Both the position numbers and the translations under genes were made by a program. The notes under the pieces were generated by a model, which did no database searches, was not told where the DNA came from, and worked only from the letters and a program-made list of their open reading frames with translations. From a virus, in UHGV virus genome UHGV-1483403: a stretch of 26,593 nt of DNA, one strand, 5' to 3'. Shown in pieces: positions 4,679 through 17,621 of this stretch; the first letter of the stretch is position 1; the number at the start of each line of letters is the position of its first letter.

Positions 4679-5327
4679 AAGGAAGGTTTGCTAGCTTGGC
4701 ATCAACGACAACGCCAATGATTTTACAGTTCCCATTGATTTCAATCATTGGGTATTGTGGATTGAGTGGTTTCAGGAATTTTCTACCGGCATCAATAACT
4801 AACTTTTTGAATGTCGCCTCGTTTTCTCCTTCAAGTTTGGCGACTACCAACTTTCCATTACGTGGTTCGACTTCTGGGTCGACGAGAATAATCATCCCCT
4901 CAGGAATACTCAGTCCTGCCGGGGCAGTCATTGAATCGCCTTTAACGTCGAGCCAAAAAGAGTCTTCAGAACAATCTACCGTTGTGTCGTACCAGTTATC
5001 TATTGCACGCCTATGATATGGCTCTACAGCTTCCATCCAACATCCTGCGCTTACCCAACTAATTAGAGGATACGAACCTCTTGGATCATGCCTGCTGTGA
5101 TAGGCAATGTTTGAAAGACTATCCTCTCCTTTCAACAGGTAATCAGGGGAGCACTGCAAAGCCTTGGCTAAGGCCAATAGGTTTTCGCCATTGGGCTCAG
5201 TTTCAGATCGCTCCCATTGGGAAATAGCAACATTAGACACGCCAACCATCTTGCCAAGGGCAGCCTGCCTAATCTTGAGTTCTTTTCTGCGAGCGCGAAT
5301 ACGCTCACCCATCAGTTGTGTATTCAT
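4677..5327 (-). CDS. c2: prophage repressor, P22 C2-like (HTH N-domain plus LexA/S24-like autocleavage C-domain)
   Basis: Track ORF; MNTQLMGERIRARRKELKIRQAALGKMVGVSNVAISQWERSE... matches my recollection of P22 c2; C-terminal S24 peptidase-like domain; flanked by P22-type operators. Confidence 0.9.
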   Translation of the reverse strand: MNTQLMGERIRARRKELKIRQAALGKMVGVSNVAISQWERSETEPNGENLLALAKALQCSPDYLLKGEDSLSNIAYHSRHDPRGSYPLISWVSAGCWMEAVEPYHRRAIDNWYDTTVDCSEDSFWLDVKGDSMTAPAGLSIPEGMIILVDPEVEPRNGKLVVAKLEGENEATFKKLVIDAGRKFLKPLNPQYPMIEINGNCKIIGVVVDAKLANLP

Positions 5328-5395
5328 AGTTAAGACATCTTAAATAAACTTGACTTAAGATTCCTTTGGTGGATAATTTAAGTGTTCTTTAATTT
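5328..5395. promoter_or_regulatory. OR operator triad with pR (rightward) and presumed pRM (leftward)
   Basis: Three 18-bp sites at 5328-5345 (AGTTAAGACATCTTAAAT), 5353-5370 and 5376-5393 (ATTTAAGTGTTCTTTAAT), 23-25 bp centre to centre; pR -35 TTGACT (5350-5355) and -10 GATAAT (5372-5377), 16-bp spacer. The site abutting the c2 start codon suggests a leaderless pRM transcript. No pRM hexamers were confidently identified. Confidence 0.7.
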
Positions 5396-5407
5396 CGGAG
5401 CGAGTCT

Positions 5408-5593
5408 ATGTACAAAAAAGATGTTATTGACCACTTCGGAACCCAGCGTGCTGTTGCTAAAGCACTAGGCATTAGCGATGCAGCAGTCTCTCAGTGGAAA
5501 GAAGTTATCCCAGAGAAAGACGCCTATCGATTGGAAATCGTTACAGCTGGCGCCCTGAAGTATCAAGAAAGTGCTTACCGCCAAGCGGCATAA
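5408..5593 (+). CDS. cro: Cro repressor, P22-type (61 aa)
   Basis: Track ORF; MYKKDVIDHFGTQRAVAKALGISDAAVSQWKEVIPEKDAYRLEIVTAGALKYQ... matches my recollection of P22 Cro; GGAG Shine-Dalgarno; downstream of pR. Confidence 0.9.
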   Translation: MYKKDVIDHFGTQRAVAKALGISDAAVSQWKEVIPEKDAYRLEIVTAGALKYQESAYRQAA

Positions 5594-5599
5594 GCAAAT

Positions 5600-5640
5600 T
5601 GCTCTTTAACAGTTCTGGCCTTTCACCTCTAACCGGGTGA
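5600..5640 (+). promoter_or_regulatory. nutR: boxA (TGCTCTTTAACA, 5600-5611) and boxB hairpin (5623-5640)
   Basis: boxA core identical to nutL; hairpin CACCU-CUAACC-GGGUG (one G-U pair) carries the same 6-nt loop CUAACC as nutL on a different stem. Confidence 0.7.
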
Positions 5641-5708
5641 GCAAACATCAGCGGCAAATCCATTGGGTGTGCCGCTATAACTCAATATCAATATAGGAAA
5701 ATTAACAA

Positions 5709-11593: not shown

Positions 11594-11778
11594 ACGCCAC
11601 AATTCAAACGATACCAGAGCTTCTTATCCAGACACGAGGCAATCAGACCGAAGTGGCGAGGATGCTTTCCTGTGCAAGAGGAACAGTGCTCAAGTACAAC
11701 CGAGACAGCAAAGGTGAGCGTCACGTAATAGTTAACGGCGTCCTGATGGTCAAACAGGGCAGGAGAGGAAGACGATGA
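11590..11778 (+). CDS. ninH: NinH-like protein
   Basis: Track ORF; ...GNQTEVARMLSCARGTVLKY...VNGVLMV parallels lambda NinH; overlaps rusA and Q boundaries. Confidence 0.75.
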   Translation: MNATIQTIPELLIQTRGNQTEVARMLSCARGTVLKYNRDSKGERHVIVNGVLMVKQGRRGRR

Positions 11779-12398
11779 GACTCGAAAGCGTAGCTAAATT
11801 TCATTCGCCAAAAAGCCCGATGATGAGTGACTCACCACGGGCTACGGCTTCTGACTCTCTTTCCGGTACCGATGTGATGGCTGCTATGGGGATGGCGCAA
11901 TCACAAGCAGGATTCGGAATGGCTGCATTCTGCGGTAAGCACGAACTCAGCCAGAACGACAAACAAAAGGCTATCAACTATCTGATGCAATTTGCACACA
12001 AGGTATCGGGGAAATACCGTGGTGTGGCAAAGCTCGAAGGAAATACTAAGGCAAAGGTACTGCAAGTGCTCGCAACATTCGCTTATGCGGATTATTGCCG
12101 TAGTGCCGCGACGCCGGGGGCAAGATGCAGAGATTGCCACGGTACAGGTCGTGCGGTTGATATAGCAAAAACAGAGCAGTGGGGGAGAGTTGTTGAGAAA
12201 GAGTGCGGAAGATGCAAAGGTGTCGGCTATTCAAGAATGCCAGCAAGCGCCGCATATCGCGCTGTAACGATGCTAATCCCAAACCTTACCCAACCCACCT
12301 GGTCACGCACTGTTAAGCCGCTGTATGACGCTCTGGTCGTGCAATGCCACAAGGAAGAGTCAATCGCAGACAACATTTTGAATGAGGTCACACGTTAA
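11775..12398 (+). CDS. Q: late-gene antiterminator Q, lambda type
   Basis: Track ORF; 207 aa, MRLESVAKFHSPKSPMMSDSPRATASDSLSGTDVMAAMG... is essentially identical to lambda Q as I recall it; zinc-binding Cys cluster. Confidence 0.9.
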   Translation: MRLESVAKFHSPKSPMMSDSPRATASDSLSGTDVMAAMGMAQSQAGFGMAAFCGKHELSQNDKQKAINYLMQFAHKVSGKYRGVAKLEGNTKAKVLQVLATFAYADYCRSAATPGARCRDCHGTGRAVDIAKTEQWGRVVEKECGRCKGVGYSRMPASAAYRAVTMLIPNLTQPTWSRTVKPLYDALVVQCHKEESIADNILNEVTR

Positions 12399-12831: not shown

Positions 12832-13155
12832 ATGAAGATGCCAGAAAAACATGACCTTTTAGCCGCCATTCTCGCGGCAAAGGAACAAGGCATCGGGGCA
12901 ATCCTTGCGTTTGCAATGGCGTACCTTCGCGGCAGATATAATGGCGGTGCGTTTACAAAAACAGTAATCGACGCAACGATGTGCGCCATTATCGCCTGGT
13001 TCATTCGTGACCTTCTCGACTTCGCCGGACTAAGTAGCAATCTCGCTTATATAACGAGCGTGTTCATCGGCTACATCGGTACTGACTCGATTGGTTCGCT
13101 TATCAAACGCTTCGCTGCTAAAAAAGCCGGAGTAGAAGATGGTGGAAATCAATAA
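12832..13155 (+). CDS. S: holin S (class I, dual-start holin/antiholin)
   Basis: Track ORF; essentially identical to lambda S107 as I recall it ([35 protein letters not shown]...). Confidence 0.9.
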
Positions 13156-13615
13156 TCAACGTAAGGCGTTCCTCGATATGCTGGCATGGTCAGAAGGAAC
13201 GGATAACGGGCGACAACCGACACGTAACCACGGTTATGATGTTATTGTTGGTGGCGAACTGTTCACTGATTACTCCGATCACCCTCGCAAACTTGTCACG
13301 CTAAACCCAAAACTCAAATCAACAGCCGCCGGACGTTACCAGCTTCTTTCACGCTGGTGGGATGCTTACCGTAAACAGCTTGGCCTGAAAGATTTTTCTC
13401 CAGAAAGCCAGGACGCTGTAGCTCTGCAGCAGATTAAAGAGCGTGGTGCTTTACCGATGATTGACCGCGGCAGTATTCGTCAGGCAATCGACCGTTGCAG
13501 CAATATCTGGGCGTCGTTACCTGGTGCAGGTTACGGTCAGTATGAACATAAAATCGGTGACCTGATTGCCCGATTTAAAAAAGCTGGTGGGGTAGTAAAT
13601 GAAGCTGAGATATAA
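13139..13615 (+). CDS. R: endolysin R (lytic transglycosylase), lambda-like
   Basis: Track ORF; [25 protein letters not shown]... roughly 90 percent identical to lambda R from memory; start overlaps the S stop. Confidence 0.9.
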
Positions 13616-13991
13616 GCTGGTTATTGTTGCCTTCGTTGTTACCGTCATTGGTTCCTTCATCTGGTCTGCTGGGCATTACTACAGCAAATATCAGCACGAA
13701 AAGGAGCGTGCTGATGAGGCTGTACGAAATGCTGAATCAGCAACTGCCATTACCCGTAACGTTCTGCAATCACTGCAAATCATCAATACAGTTATAGAGG
13801 CTAACCAGCATGCAAAAGAGCAGATCGCACTGGACGCATCGGGAGCCTCGGCTGATATCCGGGTTGCTGTTGCGAATGATGATTGCACTAATCGCCATGT
13901 CCCTGCTGGCGCAGTTAAGCGGCTGCAACAATTCGCGAACGGTCTACGTCAAAGTGCCGGTAGTCCCGTTACCGGCCAGCCTGACGGCTGA
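13599..13991 (+). CDS. Rz: i-spanin Rz (non-lambda family)
   Basis: Track ORF; N-terminal transmembrane segment LVIVAFVVTVIGSFIW followed by a coiled-coil-like periplasmic region; overlaps the R stop. Confidence 0.75.
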   Translation: MKLRYKLVIVAFVVTVIGSFIWSAGHYYSKYQHEKERADEAVRNAESATAITRNVLQSLQIINTVIEANQHAKEQIALDASGASADIRVAVANDDCTNRHVPAGAVKRLQQFANGLRQSAGSPVTGQPDG

Positions 13992-14133
13992 CACCCCGCA
14001 ACCGGAAATCCCTGACAACCTGACGTGGGGCCAGAGCCTAGATTTAAACGTCAGTCTCCTATCAGCGCTTGGGCAGTGCAACCGGGATAAGGCAGATATT
14101 AGGCAAGCTGTAAAGAAACAAGCGGGCCAATAA
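13876..14133 (+). CDS. Rz1: o-spanin Rz1 (lipoprotein) in the +1 frame, extending past the Rz stop
   Basis: In-frame ATG at 13876 within track ORF 13810..14133; signal peptide with lipobox LAQLSG|C; proline-rich mature region; ends 142 nt beyond Rz. Confidence 0.6.
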   Translation: MMIALIAMSLLAQLSGCNNSRTVYVKVPVVPLPASLTADTPQPEIPDNLTWGQSLDLNVSLLSALGQCNRDKADIRQAVKKQAGQ

Positions 14134-14155
14134 GCCCGCACTTATGGAGGATTCA
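14122..14155 (-). terminator. strand-specific terminator for the minus-strand moron gene
   Basis: Hairpin GCGGGC-CAATAA-GCCCGC (14122-14139). On the minus transcript it sits 22 nt after the ClpP-like stop and is followed by UUGUUUCUUUA; on the plus (late) transcript no U-run follows. Confidence 0.4.
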
Positions 14156-14160
14156 AAATG

Positions 14161-14721
14161 TTACAGAACCCACCACCTGATCGAATCTGTGGGTATGGTT
14201 GCAGCCTCGACATTCTGGATCATACCCAACTCGGTGGCCCTTCCCGGATCAATGATGGTTGCAGAAGTGATCAAATTAGCCCAGTCAATTTGCTCATCTG
14301 GGGCTACAGCGAGAGCCTCGATATTCATCACCTGCACAAATCTTTGCAAGTCGTCATCCAGACATGCCGCCCATTCCCTAAGCCTGAGGTGATCTGCTTG
14401 TGGGGCGGCAAATCCCCAATGTAAAGGATGTAATAAAAATCGCGAGAGAGGATTAGCAAACCGCTCAGATCCAGCCATGAAAATAACATTTGCTATAGAT
14501 TCCACGTTACTAAGGTTATGTGTCTTCACCTTTACAGGAAGAGACTTAAGAAAGTTGTATGCGGTAAAACCTGCAACGGTATCTCCACCTTTACTAGAGA
14601 TGTAAATCCTGATCTCAGAGGCTGGTTGGTTAGGGCTTGATATCGCTTTGAGGCAAACATCCATAAGGCTGGATACAGAAGCAACTGTCACATCTGTCAT
14701 GAAGTGTACGGTATGGATCAT
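14161..14721 (-). CDS. ClpP-fold (S14-like) serine peptidase homologue, stand-alone, lacking the N-terminal axial-loop region
   Basis: Track ORF; by-eye alignment to E. coli ClpP: IRIYISSKGGDTVAG vs IYLYINSPGGVITAG; NVESIANVIFMAG vs GQAASMGAFLLTAG (Ser aligned to the catalytic Ser); RFANPLSRFLLHPL vs RFCLPNSRVMIHQPL (His aligned to the catalytic His). Convergent to the late operon, between Rz1 and terminase. Confidence 0.65.
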   Translation of the reverse strand: MIHTVHFMTDVTVASVSSLMDVCLKAISSPNQPASEIRIYISSKGGDTVAGFTAYNFLKSLPVKVKTHNLSNVESIANVIFMAGSERFANPLSRFLLHPLHWGFAAPQADHLRLREWAACLDDDLQRFVQVMNIEALAVAPDEQIDWANLITSATIIDPGRATELGMIQNVEAATIPTDSIRWWVL

Positions 14722-14788
14722 TTAAGTTTCCCAGAGATATGCCGCAATTGGCATTTTCATAATGCACATAAAGTGAAAGGTTTTCTGC

Positions 14789-14803
14789 GTAAACCCGGAT
14801 GAA
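14789..14803. promoter_or_regulatory. 15-bp perfect palindrome ATGAAAT-T-ATTTCAT upstream of the ClpP-like gene
   Basis: Exact inverted repeat, about 70-80 bp upstream (minus-strand sense) of the ClpP-like start. Confidence 0.3.
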
Positions 14804-14823
14804 ATTATTTCATGAAGTAAGGC

Positions 14824-14858
14824 ATTACAGAAGCCCTTCATTGAGGGGCTTCGATAAT
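14824..14858 (-). other. conserved stem-loop element, copy 1 (7-bp stem GAAGCCC/GGGCTTC, 9-nt loop TTCATTGAG, 4-bp flanking helix)
   Basis: Same architecture and near-identical loop as copy 2 at 15019-15053; stems differ by compensatory changes; a G-U pair forms only on the minus-strand RNA. Confidence 0.5.
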
Positions 14859-15018
14859 GAAACCGGAATTTATTCTGGGTAACCAGTTACGGCAGTACAG
14901 CGAAACAACCCAAGCCAGTAAGTGGGGAAATAACACTGGCAGCCACTGAAAGATGAACCTCCTGCCTTATGGCAAAAAAGATTCTTTGTGGTGGCGGACT
15001 GATGGAAAGACATCGGTT

Positions 15019-15053
15019 ATTGCAGAGACCATTCAATGAGTGGTCTCGACAAT
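15019..15053 (-). other. conserved stem-loop element, copy 2 (7-bp stem GAGACCA/TGGTCTC, 9-nt loop TTCAATGAG, 4-bp flanking helix)
   Basis: See copy 1; three stem positions and one flank position differ between copies while keeping Watson-Crick pairing. Confidence 0.5.
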
Positions 15054-15183
15054 GGCTTATACCCTACACGGGATAACTTAACTGATATCCCCACAAGCGG
15101 ATAAAGAGATTCTCAATGTCAGGAATCTACTTTTAGTCCTAGTAATGATGAACTAGATATCAGCTGAGTCGCTTGGGTGGTGA

Positions 15184-15420
15184 TTACGATTCTGCTTCAA
15201 ACTCAGAAATTAGTTGATGAACACGTTCAGTATATGATGGGTTAGAACCTAGAAACTCTTCCACTGTCTGAATGGTTTCATCACCCTCCCATTCAAAATG
15301 GCTCACAGGTGACGAATGACCAGCCCTGACTTGGTAGGAGCCATTGTCCAATTTGTCCAGGAATATATAAGTTTCATTATCATGACCTGTATTTCGGTAA
15401 AAAATTTGCTTTGAGTTCAT
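15184..15420 (-). CDS. small acidic hypothetical protein (78 aa)
   Basis: Track ORF; AGGA Shine-Dalgarno 8 nt upstream of the ATG; only 24 bp separate its start from the divergent terminase small-subunit start, so its promoter would lie inside the terminase coding region. Confidence 0.45.
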   Translation of the reverse strand: MNSKQIFYRNTGHDNETYIFLDKLDNGSYQVRAGHSSPVSHFEWEGDETIQTVEEFLGSNPSYTERVHQLISEFEAES

Positions 15421-15444
15421 TAAAGAAATCCTCTAGAGAAAACT

Positions 15445-15996
15445 ATGGCACTCACCGACAAACAAGAGATGTTCTGTCGCGAGTACCTCATCGATTTAAA
15501 CGCCACACAAGCGGCTATTCGGGCGGGGTACAGCGCAAAGACAGCTAACCGTACCGCATCCGAAAACATGTCAAAACCTGACATCCAATTCAGAATCGCC
15601 GAACTGAAAGCGCAACGCAATGATCTTGTTGGTATTAATGCAGAATATGTGCTTAATCGCCTTATTGAAATCGACCAGATGGATGTGCTCGACATTCTCC
15701 TGCAAAACGGTGAGTTAAAGCCCATTAAAGACTGGCCTAAGGTATGGCGCACAACGTTATCAGGAATGGATGTTGTGGAGATGGTATCCGCAGATAGTGC
15801 TGCTCTCCTGAAGAAAATCAAATGGCCTGATAAGGTTAAAAACCTTGAGTTGCTCGGGCGTCATGTTTCTGTTCAGGCGTTTAAAGACAACGTCAAAAAT
15901 GAAGTGACTGGTGCTGACGGAGGACCAGTCAGAACAGAAATTACCAACTTAACGCCGGAGCAGGCTGCAGAGGCGTATAGAAAAATGATGGGCTAA
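15445..15996 (+). CDS. terminase small subunit (Terminase_2-like)
   Basis: Track ORF; N-terminal HTH-like segment ([24 protein letters not shown]) typical of small terminases; immediately upstream of the large subunit. Confidence 0.8.
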
Positions 15997-15998
15997 GT

Positions 15999-17621
15999 AT
16001 GCCGTTACCATTCCCCTTCGATTTTAAACATCCTGATTACCAGATGGTTTTTGAATGGCGGATGGAACGCTTACAGCGCATTCGCCAGAACCCTGAAATA
16101 TTGCCAGCACTAAAACAGTTTTACCGAACCAACCCGGCTCAGTTCATCATCGACTGGGGCATGACAACGGACCCGCGTAATATTGATTATGGCCTGCCGG
16201 TGACCATTCCGTTTTTACTCTTCCCTAAGCAGGAGGAGTGGATCCACTGGATTATGGAACGCTGGGGTAATCGGGAGAATGGTATTACCGAAAAATCCCG
16301 TGAAATGGGGCTCAGTTGGACCGCGATCGGACTGGCCTGCTCGCTTTGTCTCTTCAACAAAGAAATGGTTATCGGTTTCGGCTCCCGTAAAGAGGAATAC
16401 GTCGACAGCACCGGTGACCCGAAAGCATTGTTCTGGAAGGCGCGCAAGTTCGTGGAAACACTACCTGTAGAGTTTCGCGGTTCGTGGAGCGAGAAGAAGC
16501 ACGCGCCATATATGCGTGTTGAGTTTCCTGAAACTGGTGCCGTTATCAAAGGCGAGGCTGGCGATAATATTGGTCGTGGTGACCGTACCACGCTTTATCT
16601 GGTTGATGAGGCTGCATTCCTTCAGCGTCCTCTGCTGATTGATGCGGCGTTGTCACAAACGACGCGTTGCCGTATCGACCTGAGTTCGGTTAACGGCATG
16701 GCGAACCCGTTCGCGCAGAAGCGTCACGGCGGGAAGATACCGGTATTCACATTCCACTGGCGGGATGATCCTCGCAAGGATGAAGAGTGGTATCGCAGGG
16801 AATGCGAGAAAATCGATAATCCGGTGGTGGTGGCACAGGAACTTGATCTGAACTACAGCGCATCAGCGGAAGGCGTCCTGATTCCATCCGAATGGGTACA
16901 GGCTGCCGTTGATGCGCATATCAAACTGGGTATCCAGCCAACAGGCAAACGACTTGGCGCGATGGATGTCGCTGATGAAGGCAGGGACAAAAATGCCTTT
17001 TCCACCCGTCATGGCTTCCTCCTGGAAAATGTGCGGGAATGGTCTGGTGTGGGTAGCGACATTTATCAGTCCGTCGAGAAGGTCTTCGGTTTTTGCGAAC
17101 AGGACAACCTCGAAGAGTTTCGCTTTGACGAGGACGGGCTGGGCGCTGGCGTTCGCGGCGATGCACGCGCTATCAACGAACTGCGTAACGCTGCGCGCCG
17201 ACCGTCAATACTCGCCACACCGTTTCGAGGTAGTGGCGCGGTATTTGATCCGGACGACGAAGCGGTGCGCGGTGACAACGGACAGGCCGCCCGCCTGAAC
17301 AAGGACTTCTTCGCTAACGCCAAAGCCCAGAGCTGGTGGCGGTTACGTAAACTTTTTCAGAATACCTGGCGCGCCGTGGTTGAAGGTATGGATTACAACC
17401 CGGACGAAATCATCTCAATCAGCAGTAGCATGGCACTCAAAGATAAACTCATCATCGAGCTTTCGCAGCCGACCTATTCCATTAATGGTGTGGGGAAAAT
17501 CGTTATTGATAAACAGCCTGATGGAACCCGGTCGCCAAACCTTGCCGACTCGGTGATGATCAGCTACGCGCCAATGAATTCAGCCCTGAATATCTGGGAG
17601 CTGCTAGGGAGACAGGCCTGA
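15999..17621 (+). CDS. terminase large subunit (ATPase plus nuclease)
   Basis: Track ORF; 540 aa; Walker B-like [10 protein letters not shown]; deviant Walker A region around EKSREMGLS; position between the small subunit and portal. Confidence 0.8.

Follow-up and report, generated by a model that had tools for sequence, protein, structure and literature searches.

The 26,593-nucleotide stretch of the UHGV virus genome UHGV-1483403 analysed here (the window, meaning that stretch at its full length) carries two 37-nt boundary hairpins on its + strand, at 14823-14859 and 15018-15054. Our findings indicate that both belong to a large RNA hairpin family, which apparently has not been filed before, and the sequence evidence assigns their structure to the + strand messenger RNA (mRNA) of the late operon. 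The typical site of the family is the junction of the lysis module, together with its accessory genes, with the packaging module. We hold these claims on family, strand and junction, taken together, with high confidence. As an overall explanation we favor a double role, in which the hairpins would punctuate the late mRNA while doubling as a recombination linker, and we give this explanation a probability of about 0.5.

The two hairpins share one architecture. Hairpin 1, a class A allele, reads ATTA CA GAAGCCC TTCATTGAG GGGCTTC GA TAAT over 14824-14858, and hairpin 2 reads ATTG CA GAGACCA TTCAATGAG TGGTCTC GA CAAT over 15019-15053. Each consists of a 5-bp lower stem, a 2x2 internal loop in which CA lies opposite GA, a 10-bp upper stem and a triloop that is closed by the top three upper-stem pairs, U.G, U-A and C-G. 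In hairpin 1, the lower stem occupies 14823-14827/14855-14859, the CA/GA internal loop 14828-14829/14853-14854, the upper stem (U.G pair included) 14830-14839/14843-14852 and the triloop AUU 14840-14842; in hairpin 2, the lower stem is UAUUG/CAAUG, the upper stem GAGACCAUUC/GAGUGGUCUC and the triloop AAU. The pattern ATTRCAG-N21-CGAYAAT matches the window twice, both times on the + strand, against 0.00 matches expected from 100 shuffles. On that strand, the minimum free energy (MFE) is -19.7 kcal/mol for hairpin 1 (z -6.5) and -18.5 kcal/mol for hairpin 2 (z -5.8), and a covariance model of the family, R1, scores them at 57.8 bits (E 1.7e-14) and 55.6 bits (E 7.6e-14), respectively. The same model finds no third copy in the 26.6-kb window.

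An initial annotation, made from the letters alone, had described the pair as two 35-nt copies at 14824-14858 and 15019-15053, with three compensated differences in the main stem and a covarying outer helix (A-T to G-C), and all of these points are correct. Its 4-bp outer helix pairs as proposed, with one further outer pair in each copy (14823-14859 and 15018-15054), and its 9-nt loop is right in sequence yet not unpaired, as it folds into the U.G, U-A and C-G pairs and the triloop. The annotation had also regarded the structure as selected, which agrees with covariation that extends across the whole family, and had named a recent 35-bp duplication as the simple alternative; the copies are instead two different alleles, each of which recurs in many phages. 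The search of related phages with a covariance model that it had suggested finds the pairing maintained far more widely than in this pair. As a separate observation, the window loops UCAUUGA (14838-14844) and UCAAUGA (15033-15039) are exactly complementary over 7 nt; a kissing-loop interaction between them was considered and set aside, as the complementarity is not conserved and hairpin 1 in relatives is usually a UACG-tetraloop allele.

The family was assembled by scanning viral contigs with fixed flanks and a free interior, using the patterns CATTACA-N20-26-GATAATGA and ATTGCAG-N19-25-CGACAATG. Because all members derive from pattern-seeded scans, the family counts given here refer to the matches listed, and they are inflated by related sequences. 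The fixed-flank scans returned random matches together with numerous true hairpins, among which hardly any stem position is constant. In the alignment of 42 distinct hairpins (A2), 98.6% of pair cells form standard pairs and 12 of the 15 pairs have changed on both sides; none of 500 shuffles reached the observed pairing, and sliding the partner by 1-3 columns lowered it to 34-50%. Members are 35-40 nt long and combine an AU-rich lower stem (CAUUR/YAAUG), an invariant CA/GA 2x2 loop and a freely covarying upper stem of 9-10 bp. Their loops fall into two classes, UUC-NNN-GAG, a triloop closed by U.G, U-A and C-G pairs, and the C(UACG)G or C(UUCG)G tetraloops.

With model R1, at least 138 matches were found in 90 loci, 45 of which hold two or three copies, always in a single orientation within a locus. 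HK97 and HK022 contain exactly two copies each and the segment of P22 that was examined contains one, whereas lambda and the K-12 prophages DLP12 and Qin have no R1 match, which makes K-12 transcript datasets unusable for these hairpins. A complementary scan, in which one upper stem was fixed and the flanks were left free, gave at least 118 instances, 96 of them with CATTA/TAATG; the variants of the lower stem are mostly wobbles on the + strand (CGTTA 8, TATTA 5). The same flank motif surrounds unrelated stems in phage contigs of 59% and 64% GC (L143 and L171), where a stop codon lies 0-2 nt upstream of the hairpin. Its recurrence around unrelated stems, GC-rich contigs included, suggests that the flanks are constrained in their own right, subject to the remaining sampling bias. 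One flank-only match, HK97 27564-27590, lies within coding sequence and was discarded as a chance hit.

Rfam 15 gave no match to the whole window at gathering thresholds, and with E-values up to 10 only chance-level hits appeared in 14700-15200, such as sar at 16.3 bits (gathering 43) and Proteo-phage-1 at 16.8 bits (gathering 42). We found no published description of the hairpins or of the sequence between them in a literature search that did not cover Clark et al. 2001 and Juhala et al. 2000, the two papers likeliest to mention them. With no match in Rfam, the family represents a candidate new RNA motif for annotation.

Several lines of evidence bear on the strand. Under a strand-symmetric filter, the upper-stem pairs comprise 345 Watson-Crick, 73 G.T and 3 A.C pairs; since G.T pairs would be mismatches on the minus strand, their excess points to the + strand. 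The tetraloops C(UACG)G and C(UUCG)G, found in many members, have the right reading on the + strand alone. Among relatives, hairpin 2 is most commonly the allele GAGGCCA/TGGTCTC, with a G.U pair that exists only on the + strand, and the same stem position is A-U in the window and G-C in P22 (GAGGCCA/TGGCCTC), where the Watson-Crick pair is restored. In the window, the minus strand folds less stably (-16.8 kcal/mol for hairpin 1 and -15.3 kcal/mol for hairpin 2) and scores only 20.2 and 13.5 bits with R1.

The position of the hairpins relative to genes is similarly consistent. Long open reading frames (ORFs) within 3 kb are co-oriented with the hairpin in 81 of 85 unique contexts. A sense ORF of at least 50 amino acids ends no more than 4 nt upstream in 38 of the 85 (antisense control, 1 of 85) and no more than 15 nt upstream in 53 (antisense control, 9), and at many loci, including those of the small terminase (TerS) and HNH genes, a ribosome-binding site and an ATG follow 8-21 nt downstream. 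Overall, the distance from a member to the next ribosome-binding site ranges from a few to some tens of nucleotides, and the preceding cistron stops immediately before it. In HK97 and HK022, both copies lie between the lysis genes and cos/terminase. The late genes of the window are all on the + strand, in the order Q, holin, endolysin, Rz/Rz1, the element, TerS and large terminase (TerL), and the shared strand places the hairpins inside the late operon, in the sense orientation. In BTP1, a P22-like prophage, the lytic genes form one large polycistronic operon (PMC7067206). Members are also found in other phage types, where they come directly after a gene for the major tail protein, whose stop codon lies 2-4 nt before the hairpin (L015, 3' end; L103, 13516-13549), so that the motif is not limited to the lysis-packaging junction.

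The hairpin also marks the limits of homology between phages. Homology between loci begins exactly at CATTACA and ends at GATAATGA; among the matches listed, one allele has 50 left and 40 right 10-nt flanks. For one upper-stem allele, represented by at least 114 instances, 32 left and 29 right flank clusters occur in 59 combinations, including 10 four-gamete squares, in which two left types are each found with the same two right types. Chimeric hairpins were also observed that join the 5' flank of one type to the 3' flank of another, for example CATCACA...GACAATG. Reticulate combinations of this kind point to exchange at or within the 37 bp, and together with the chimeras they imply, at the level of sequence comparison, that crossovers have taken place inside the hairpin. 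Whether lambdoid modules are exchanged at gene boundaries by targeted recombination at conserved linkers, or by random illegitimate recombination followed by selection, has been debated since the 1970s. The hairpin family offers a concrete, sequence-defined linker that is common, with hundreds of phages and thousands of E. coli prophages carrying it. There is also a reason for its conservation that does not depend on exchange: the RNA structure covaries, is specific to one strand and keeps register with stop codons. The question of exchange is thereby opened to experiment in the classic systems HK97, HK022, P22 and HK620.

At some loci, hairpins bracket a cassette of a single gene. For instance, an HNH endonuclease-like gene (L093 5093-5611, region 5007-5663) and a Gp49-like gene (L026 429-809, region 147-850; likewise in L027) are enclosed in this way. 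In a prophage of E. coli O157:H7 WS4202 (L243 2414-2517), a stretch of about 50 nt that contains a canonical terminator lies directly 5' of the hairpin and is bordered by the 5-bp direct repeat CATTA, which could be a recombination or insertion scar at the foot of the hairpin.

In the window, the two hairpins bracket a noncoding block at 14814-15095 (about 280 bp), which recurs in about 200 phage records at 87-99% identity. The records are of lambdoid, P22-like and HK97-like phages, and the matching DNA is in every case noncoding or of doubtful annotation. Carriers include HK97 (38655-38931), HK022, mEp234, HK140, HK620, Sf6, CUS-3, epsilon34 and P22; Stx2 phages have the block only from hairpin 2 onward. 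At least part of it was present in 2278 of 5426 complete E. coli genomes, and 80% or more of it in 357. The block is a mosaic, of which other phages may have only hairpin 1, only the core, or only hairpin 2 with the tail; P22-type phages have the core without hairpin 1, an identical copy of hairpin 1 has different flanks at locus L013, and in some phages genes such as one of the Gp49 family are inserted inside the block. This mosaic also led us to reject a miniature inverted-repeat transposable element (MITE), with the hairpins as terminal inverted repeats of a 230-bp unit, as each hairpin occurs alone in many other contexts. The block as a whole folds with z -5.8, which arises mainly from the hairpins.

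Between the hairpins lies a conserved noncoding segment of 160 nt, in which a variable linker with a small hairpin (CCGGAAUUUAUUCUGG) at 14860-14888 on the + strand is one of at least four alternatives joining the core at about 14889; in alignment A4, four unrelated upstream contexts converge on ACGGCAG. The core itself (14889-15014, + strand, 126 nt) is near-invariant in 50-55 distinct sequences, with a mean pairwise identity of 97.3%. In the adjacent orf80 from the same loci, codon positions 1+2 reach 96.8% and position 3 reaches 88.6%, and the identity of the core stays level while orf80 diverges. A coding function on either strand was rejected, as every candidate small ORF is broken in relatives, by 1-nt indels, by a TAA in place of TAT that stops one + strand frame, or by a lost ATG in another. 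The core alone is weakly structured (z -2.0 on the + strand, -1.6 on the minus strand), and its near-invariance makes covariation uninformative, with a double change at only 1 of 34 predicted pairs. It is a lead to an uncharacterized RNA or DNA function of the late operon. The 3' tail of the block (15055-15095, + strand) contains a small hairpin, GGGAUA-N10-UAUCCC, at 15070-15091 (MFE -8.0 kcal/mol, z -4.0). Together with the 3' arm of hairpin 2, the tail is the most widespread piece of the block, query positions 225-278 dominating the 2278 E. coli genomes, and it also follows a different hairpin allele in an O157:H7 prophage.

According to the explanation that we favor, the hairpins would act as punctuation in the long, polycistronic mRNA of the late operon. 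The upper stem-loop, being stable, would protect the 3' end of the upstream segment, insulate the downstream ribosome-binding site, or both; a stable 10-bp stem-loop that ends the upstream cistron is a classic design for 3' protection. The CA/GA loop and the lower stem would form the recognized part, most plausibly an endonuclease processing site of the type of the T7 RNase III signals. Insulation, as the alternative, would shield the ribosome-binding site that follows from whatever lies upstream, an arrangement that would be well suited to genes under constant re-assortment. The roughly 37 bp conserved at gene boundaries would at the same time serve as a homologous crossover point for modules and single-gene cassettes. 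Any specific part in processing or stability is the more tentative element of this proposal, and we consider it somewhat less likely than not.

A number of points weigh against this explanation. The biochemical role of the hairpins is inferred; with 5 bp in the lower stem and about 17 bp-equivalents in the whole helix, the structure falls short of a classical RNase III signal in length, and the hairpins have no U-tract for termination. The G.T pairs and the co-orientation would also fit a structure in + strand single-stranded DNA, and the strong conservation of the core is left unexplained by punctuation. In addition, retrieval with fixed flanks or a fixed upper stem makes the conservation of the fixed part partly circular, which is mitigated by the complementary scan with free flanks and by the GC-rich members.

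The conservation of the core speaks for a different explanation, in which the roughly 230 nt that span both hairpins and the core would be excised from the late transcript as a processed noncoding RNA (ncRNA), much as DicF is processed from a prophage operon. The terminal hairpins would cap this RNA against decay that depends on 5' or 3' ends, and the core would pair with a target or bind a protein, acting in trans on the host (takeover, anti-defense) or in cis on the packaging genes. A core that is noncoding, weakly folded on its own and more conserved than even codon positions 1+2 of orf80 agrees with this, as do hairpins at both ends in the window, HK97, HK022 and HK620, and the absence of a predicted promoter of its own is consistent with release by processing. 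However, hairpins that lack the core greatly outnumber those that have it, and the P22-type core lacks hairpin 1; the transcriptome of the BTP1 lysogen has no annotated ncRNA in the interval from rha to pid that holds the core, a weak test for a product of the late transcript, as uninduced cells dominate and about 0.2% are spontaneously induced. We consider a processed ncRNA unlikely overall. If it were correct, the core would have an undescribed function, within a block of which parts are present in prophages of about 40% of complete E. coli genomes, and the hairpin family would be an RNA-level "cassette boundary" signal that drives the modular evolution of temperate phages. Less probable again is a DNA-level element whose RNA is incidental. 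Here the palindromes would be the site of a dimeric protein, a cruciform or nuclease target that would stimulate recombination, or a hairpin in + strand single-stranded DNA during rolling-circle replication or packaging. The hairpins, located at recombination junctions, are indeed near-perfect palindromes of 37 bp, and DNA hairpins tolerate G.T pairs. As packaging proceeds in the direction of late transcription, co-orientation fits RNA or single-stranded DNA, and in the O157 prophage the 5-bp CATTA direct repeat flanks the 50-nt insertion beside the hairpin. A duplex site or cruciform nevertheless predicts no strand bias, contrary to the G.T:A.C ratio of 73:3, and A.C mismatches would destabilize the other arm of the cruciform. 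Free variation of the upper stem with pairing kept is atypical of a protein operator, and the UNCG tetraloop is a motif that stabilizes RNA. The tight register with the stop codons of sense ORFs is a feature of the transcript or translation level, and the element is found in both cos and headful phages, independent of packaging type.

The hairpins might also be functionless remnants of the terminators at the 3' ends of morons, which would have lost their U-tracts, be harmless under Q antitermination and hitch-hike with the cassettes. They directly follow genes, and class B upper stems resemble those of ordinary terminators; one of them, HK97 13799-13818 (AAACCACCUACGGGUGGUUU), is annotated as a putative terminator. 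Decay, though, would hardly conserve the CA/GA loop and the flank motif around a covarying stem, in GC-rich phages too; several members stand directly after a canonical T-run terminator and hence are not the terminator of that gene, no member has a U-tract, and neutral remnants would not keep 98.6% pairing. This origin is improbable, marginally more so than a DNA-level element. Far more remote is the model of the initial annotation, in which the hairpins regulate a minus-strand transcript that joins a small acidic ORF to a ClpP-like moron gene, with upstream ORFs (uORFs) initiated in the loops coupling translation. The ORF-poor gap between these two minus-strand genes is present (14722-15183), as are the loop ORFs: a 39-codon frame opening at the AUG of the hairpin 1 loop (14722-14841, minus strand), whose TAA directly precedes the ClpP-like ATG, and a TTG frame from 15036. 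The minus strand does fold, with less stability than the + strand as given above, and with no promoter predicted between the hairpins and the ClpP-like gene, read-in from upstream would be possible. The G-U asymmetry on which the minus-strand assignment had rested is a single internal-loop position, outweighed by the G.T excess, the UNCG loops and the orientation of neighboring genes. The loop start codons are not conserved either: family loops are ACT, TACG, TTCG, CAG and others, mostly without an ATG or TTG on the minus strand, the AUG in the window has no preceding Shine-Dalgarno sequence, and minus-strand ORFs that cross the core are broken by 1-nt indels in relatives. The supposed link to the moron genes fails likewise, as the element is found in hundreds of phages without these genes, the ClpP-like gene being absent from all relatives examined (HK97, HK022, P22, HK620 and others), and no hairpin lies near its homologue in Proteus. 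In P22, the analogous minus-strand moron pid, beside hairpin 2, is an autonomous unit with its own weak promoter (transcription start site 40,880) and a Rho-independent terminator, and its 476-nt transcript ends before the hairpin (PMC8835761). Minus-strand read-through may cross the element in this prophage, but the hairpins are not shaped by it.

Among known systems, the closest analogues in behavior are the promoter early stem-loop (PeSL) cassettes and the lambdoid boundary sequences, whereas T7 RNase III signals and repetitive extragenic palindromic (REP) elements are closest in form. PeSL cassettes of T4-type phages consist of a strong sigma-70 promoter and an effective terminator stem-loop (Arbiol et al. 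2010, PMC2839356; Comeau et al. 2014, PMC4122927). As in the present family, the motif is short, conserved and intergenic, contains a stem-loop and lies on either side of genes that are variable or non-essential; modules are shuffled, inserted and deleted when its copies recombine. Unlike them, the hairpins have no predicted promoter and no U-tract, and lie inside a Q-antiterminated late operon; their hallmark is the conserved lower stem with the CA/GA loop, and the sequences are dissimilar. The lambdoid "boundary" or linker sequences (Susskind & Botstein 1978; Clark et al. 2001, on HK620), as a later account summarizes them, were proposed to target homologous recombination (PMC3233612). As with the hairpins, a short conserved stretch at a gene boundary is set between unrelated sequences, and HK620 itself carries both hairpins. 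The published concept is one of DNA homology, while the element described here is a covarying, strand-specific hairpin in register with stop codons, which argues for a function at the transcript level.

T7 RNase III signals resemble the present family in that both are hairpins located between the cistrons of a polycistronic phage mRNA, and in both an internal loop separates a lower stem from an upper stem of about 10 bp, or about one helical turn. In signals such as R1.1, familiar from the 1983 work of Dunn and Studier and from the Nicholson laboratory, cleavage in the internal loop reportedly leaves a protective 3' hairpin on the upstream RNA. The lower stem of the present hairpins has only 5 bp, which the flanks do not extend, compared with about 8-10 bp and about two helical turns in the signal, and the internal loop is a symmetric 2x2. 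RNase III signals contain a CUU/GAA element, of which the GAA/UUC pair block of class A is reminiscent, and this similarity can be taken as a lead. REP sequences and bacterial interspersed mosaic elements (BIMEs) are enterobacterial chromosomal palindromes present in hundreds of copies, with a GTAG foot and RAYT transposases, and REPs stabilize the 3' ends of mRNA. Like the hairpins, they are imperfect palindromes of about 35-40 nt just after genes, with conserved feet and variable stems; the hairpins differ in being confined to phage late operons, at 1-3 per genome and with no associated transposase. The copy number of a REP/BIME or MITE family is not reached in the phage sequences and prophage regions scanned, with two copies each in the window, HK97 and HK022 and none in lambda, DLP12 or Qin. 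Intrinsic terminators at the 3' ends of HK97 morons are likewise GC-rich hairpins directly downstream of a gene, sometimes with a UNCG loop, but the hairpins are followed in essentially all members by GAUAAUGA, which contains no U-tract, and have conserved flanks. Antitermination RNAs of the nut/boxB or HK022 put type were rejected, as a scan of HK022 located copies only at the lysis-packaging junction and none in the put-bearing early regions. In sum, the hairpins fail the defining tests for a terminator, a PeSL, a full-length RNase III signal, nut/put and every Rfam family.

The late genes around the element are all on the + strand of the window. The Q antiterminator (11775-12398) is followed by the holin (12832-13155), the endolysin (13139-13615), the Rz-like (13599-13991) and Rz1-like (13810-14133) genes, TerS (15445-15996) and TerL (15999-17621). 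The TerL gene has no Pfam match with E up to 0.01 and was recognized only by PHROG 2 (1.1e-32). No promoter-like site was predicted on either strand of 13500-16100, the terminator scan reported neither hairpin, and the window contains no tRNA or tmRNA gene.

Two minus-strand ORFs flank the element and lie outside it. The ClpP-like moron (14161-14721; Pfam CLP_protease, E 4.9e-12), inserted between Rz1 and the element, also matches PHROG families of head maturation proteases, and the terminator scan places a terminator-like hairpin of this gene at 14122-14139 on the minus strand. The gene is rare, without a DNA-level match in any phage record, and its nearest homologue among species-representative genomes is in Proteus mirabilis, at 51% identity. 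Between the element and TerS, a 78-amino-acid acidic ORFan (15184-15420) has no Pfam or PHROG family; its upstream region falls within the TerS gene, which makes it doubtful as a real gene. It was rejected as a homologue of P22 Pid, being dissimilar by inspection and without a family match.

Two further observations concern the neighborhood of orf80 in relatives. HK97 38957-39060 (L241) encodes only the 5' part of an orf80 homologue (MAEIILMTEEQKFQLEIYKLVMNQNAA...), which runs into the start of the HNH gene gp74 and suggests that the HNH gene was inserted into orf80 in HK97. In P22, the + strand at 40744-40932 (L242 2245-2433) contains an ORF that resembles the N-terminus of a Terminase_2-type small terminase. 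This ORF is located in an unannotated gap upstream of orf80, where it overlaps the region of the 5' untranslated region of pid on the opposite strand, and it is probably a relic of an earlier packaging module.

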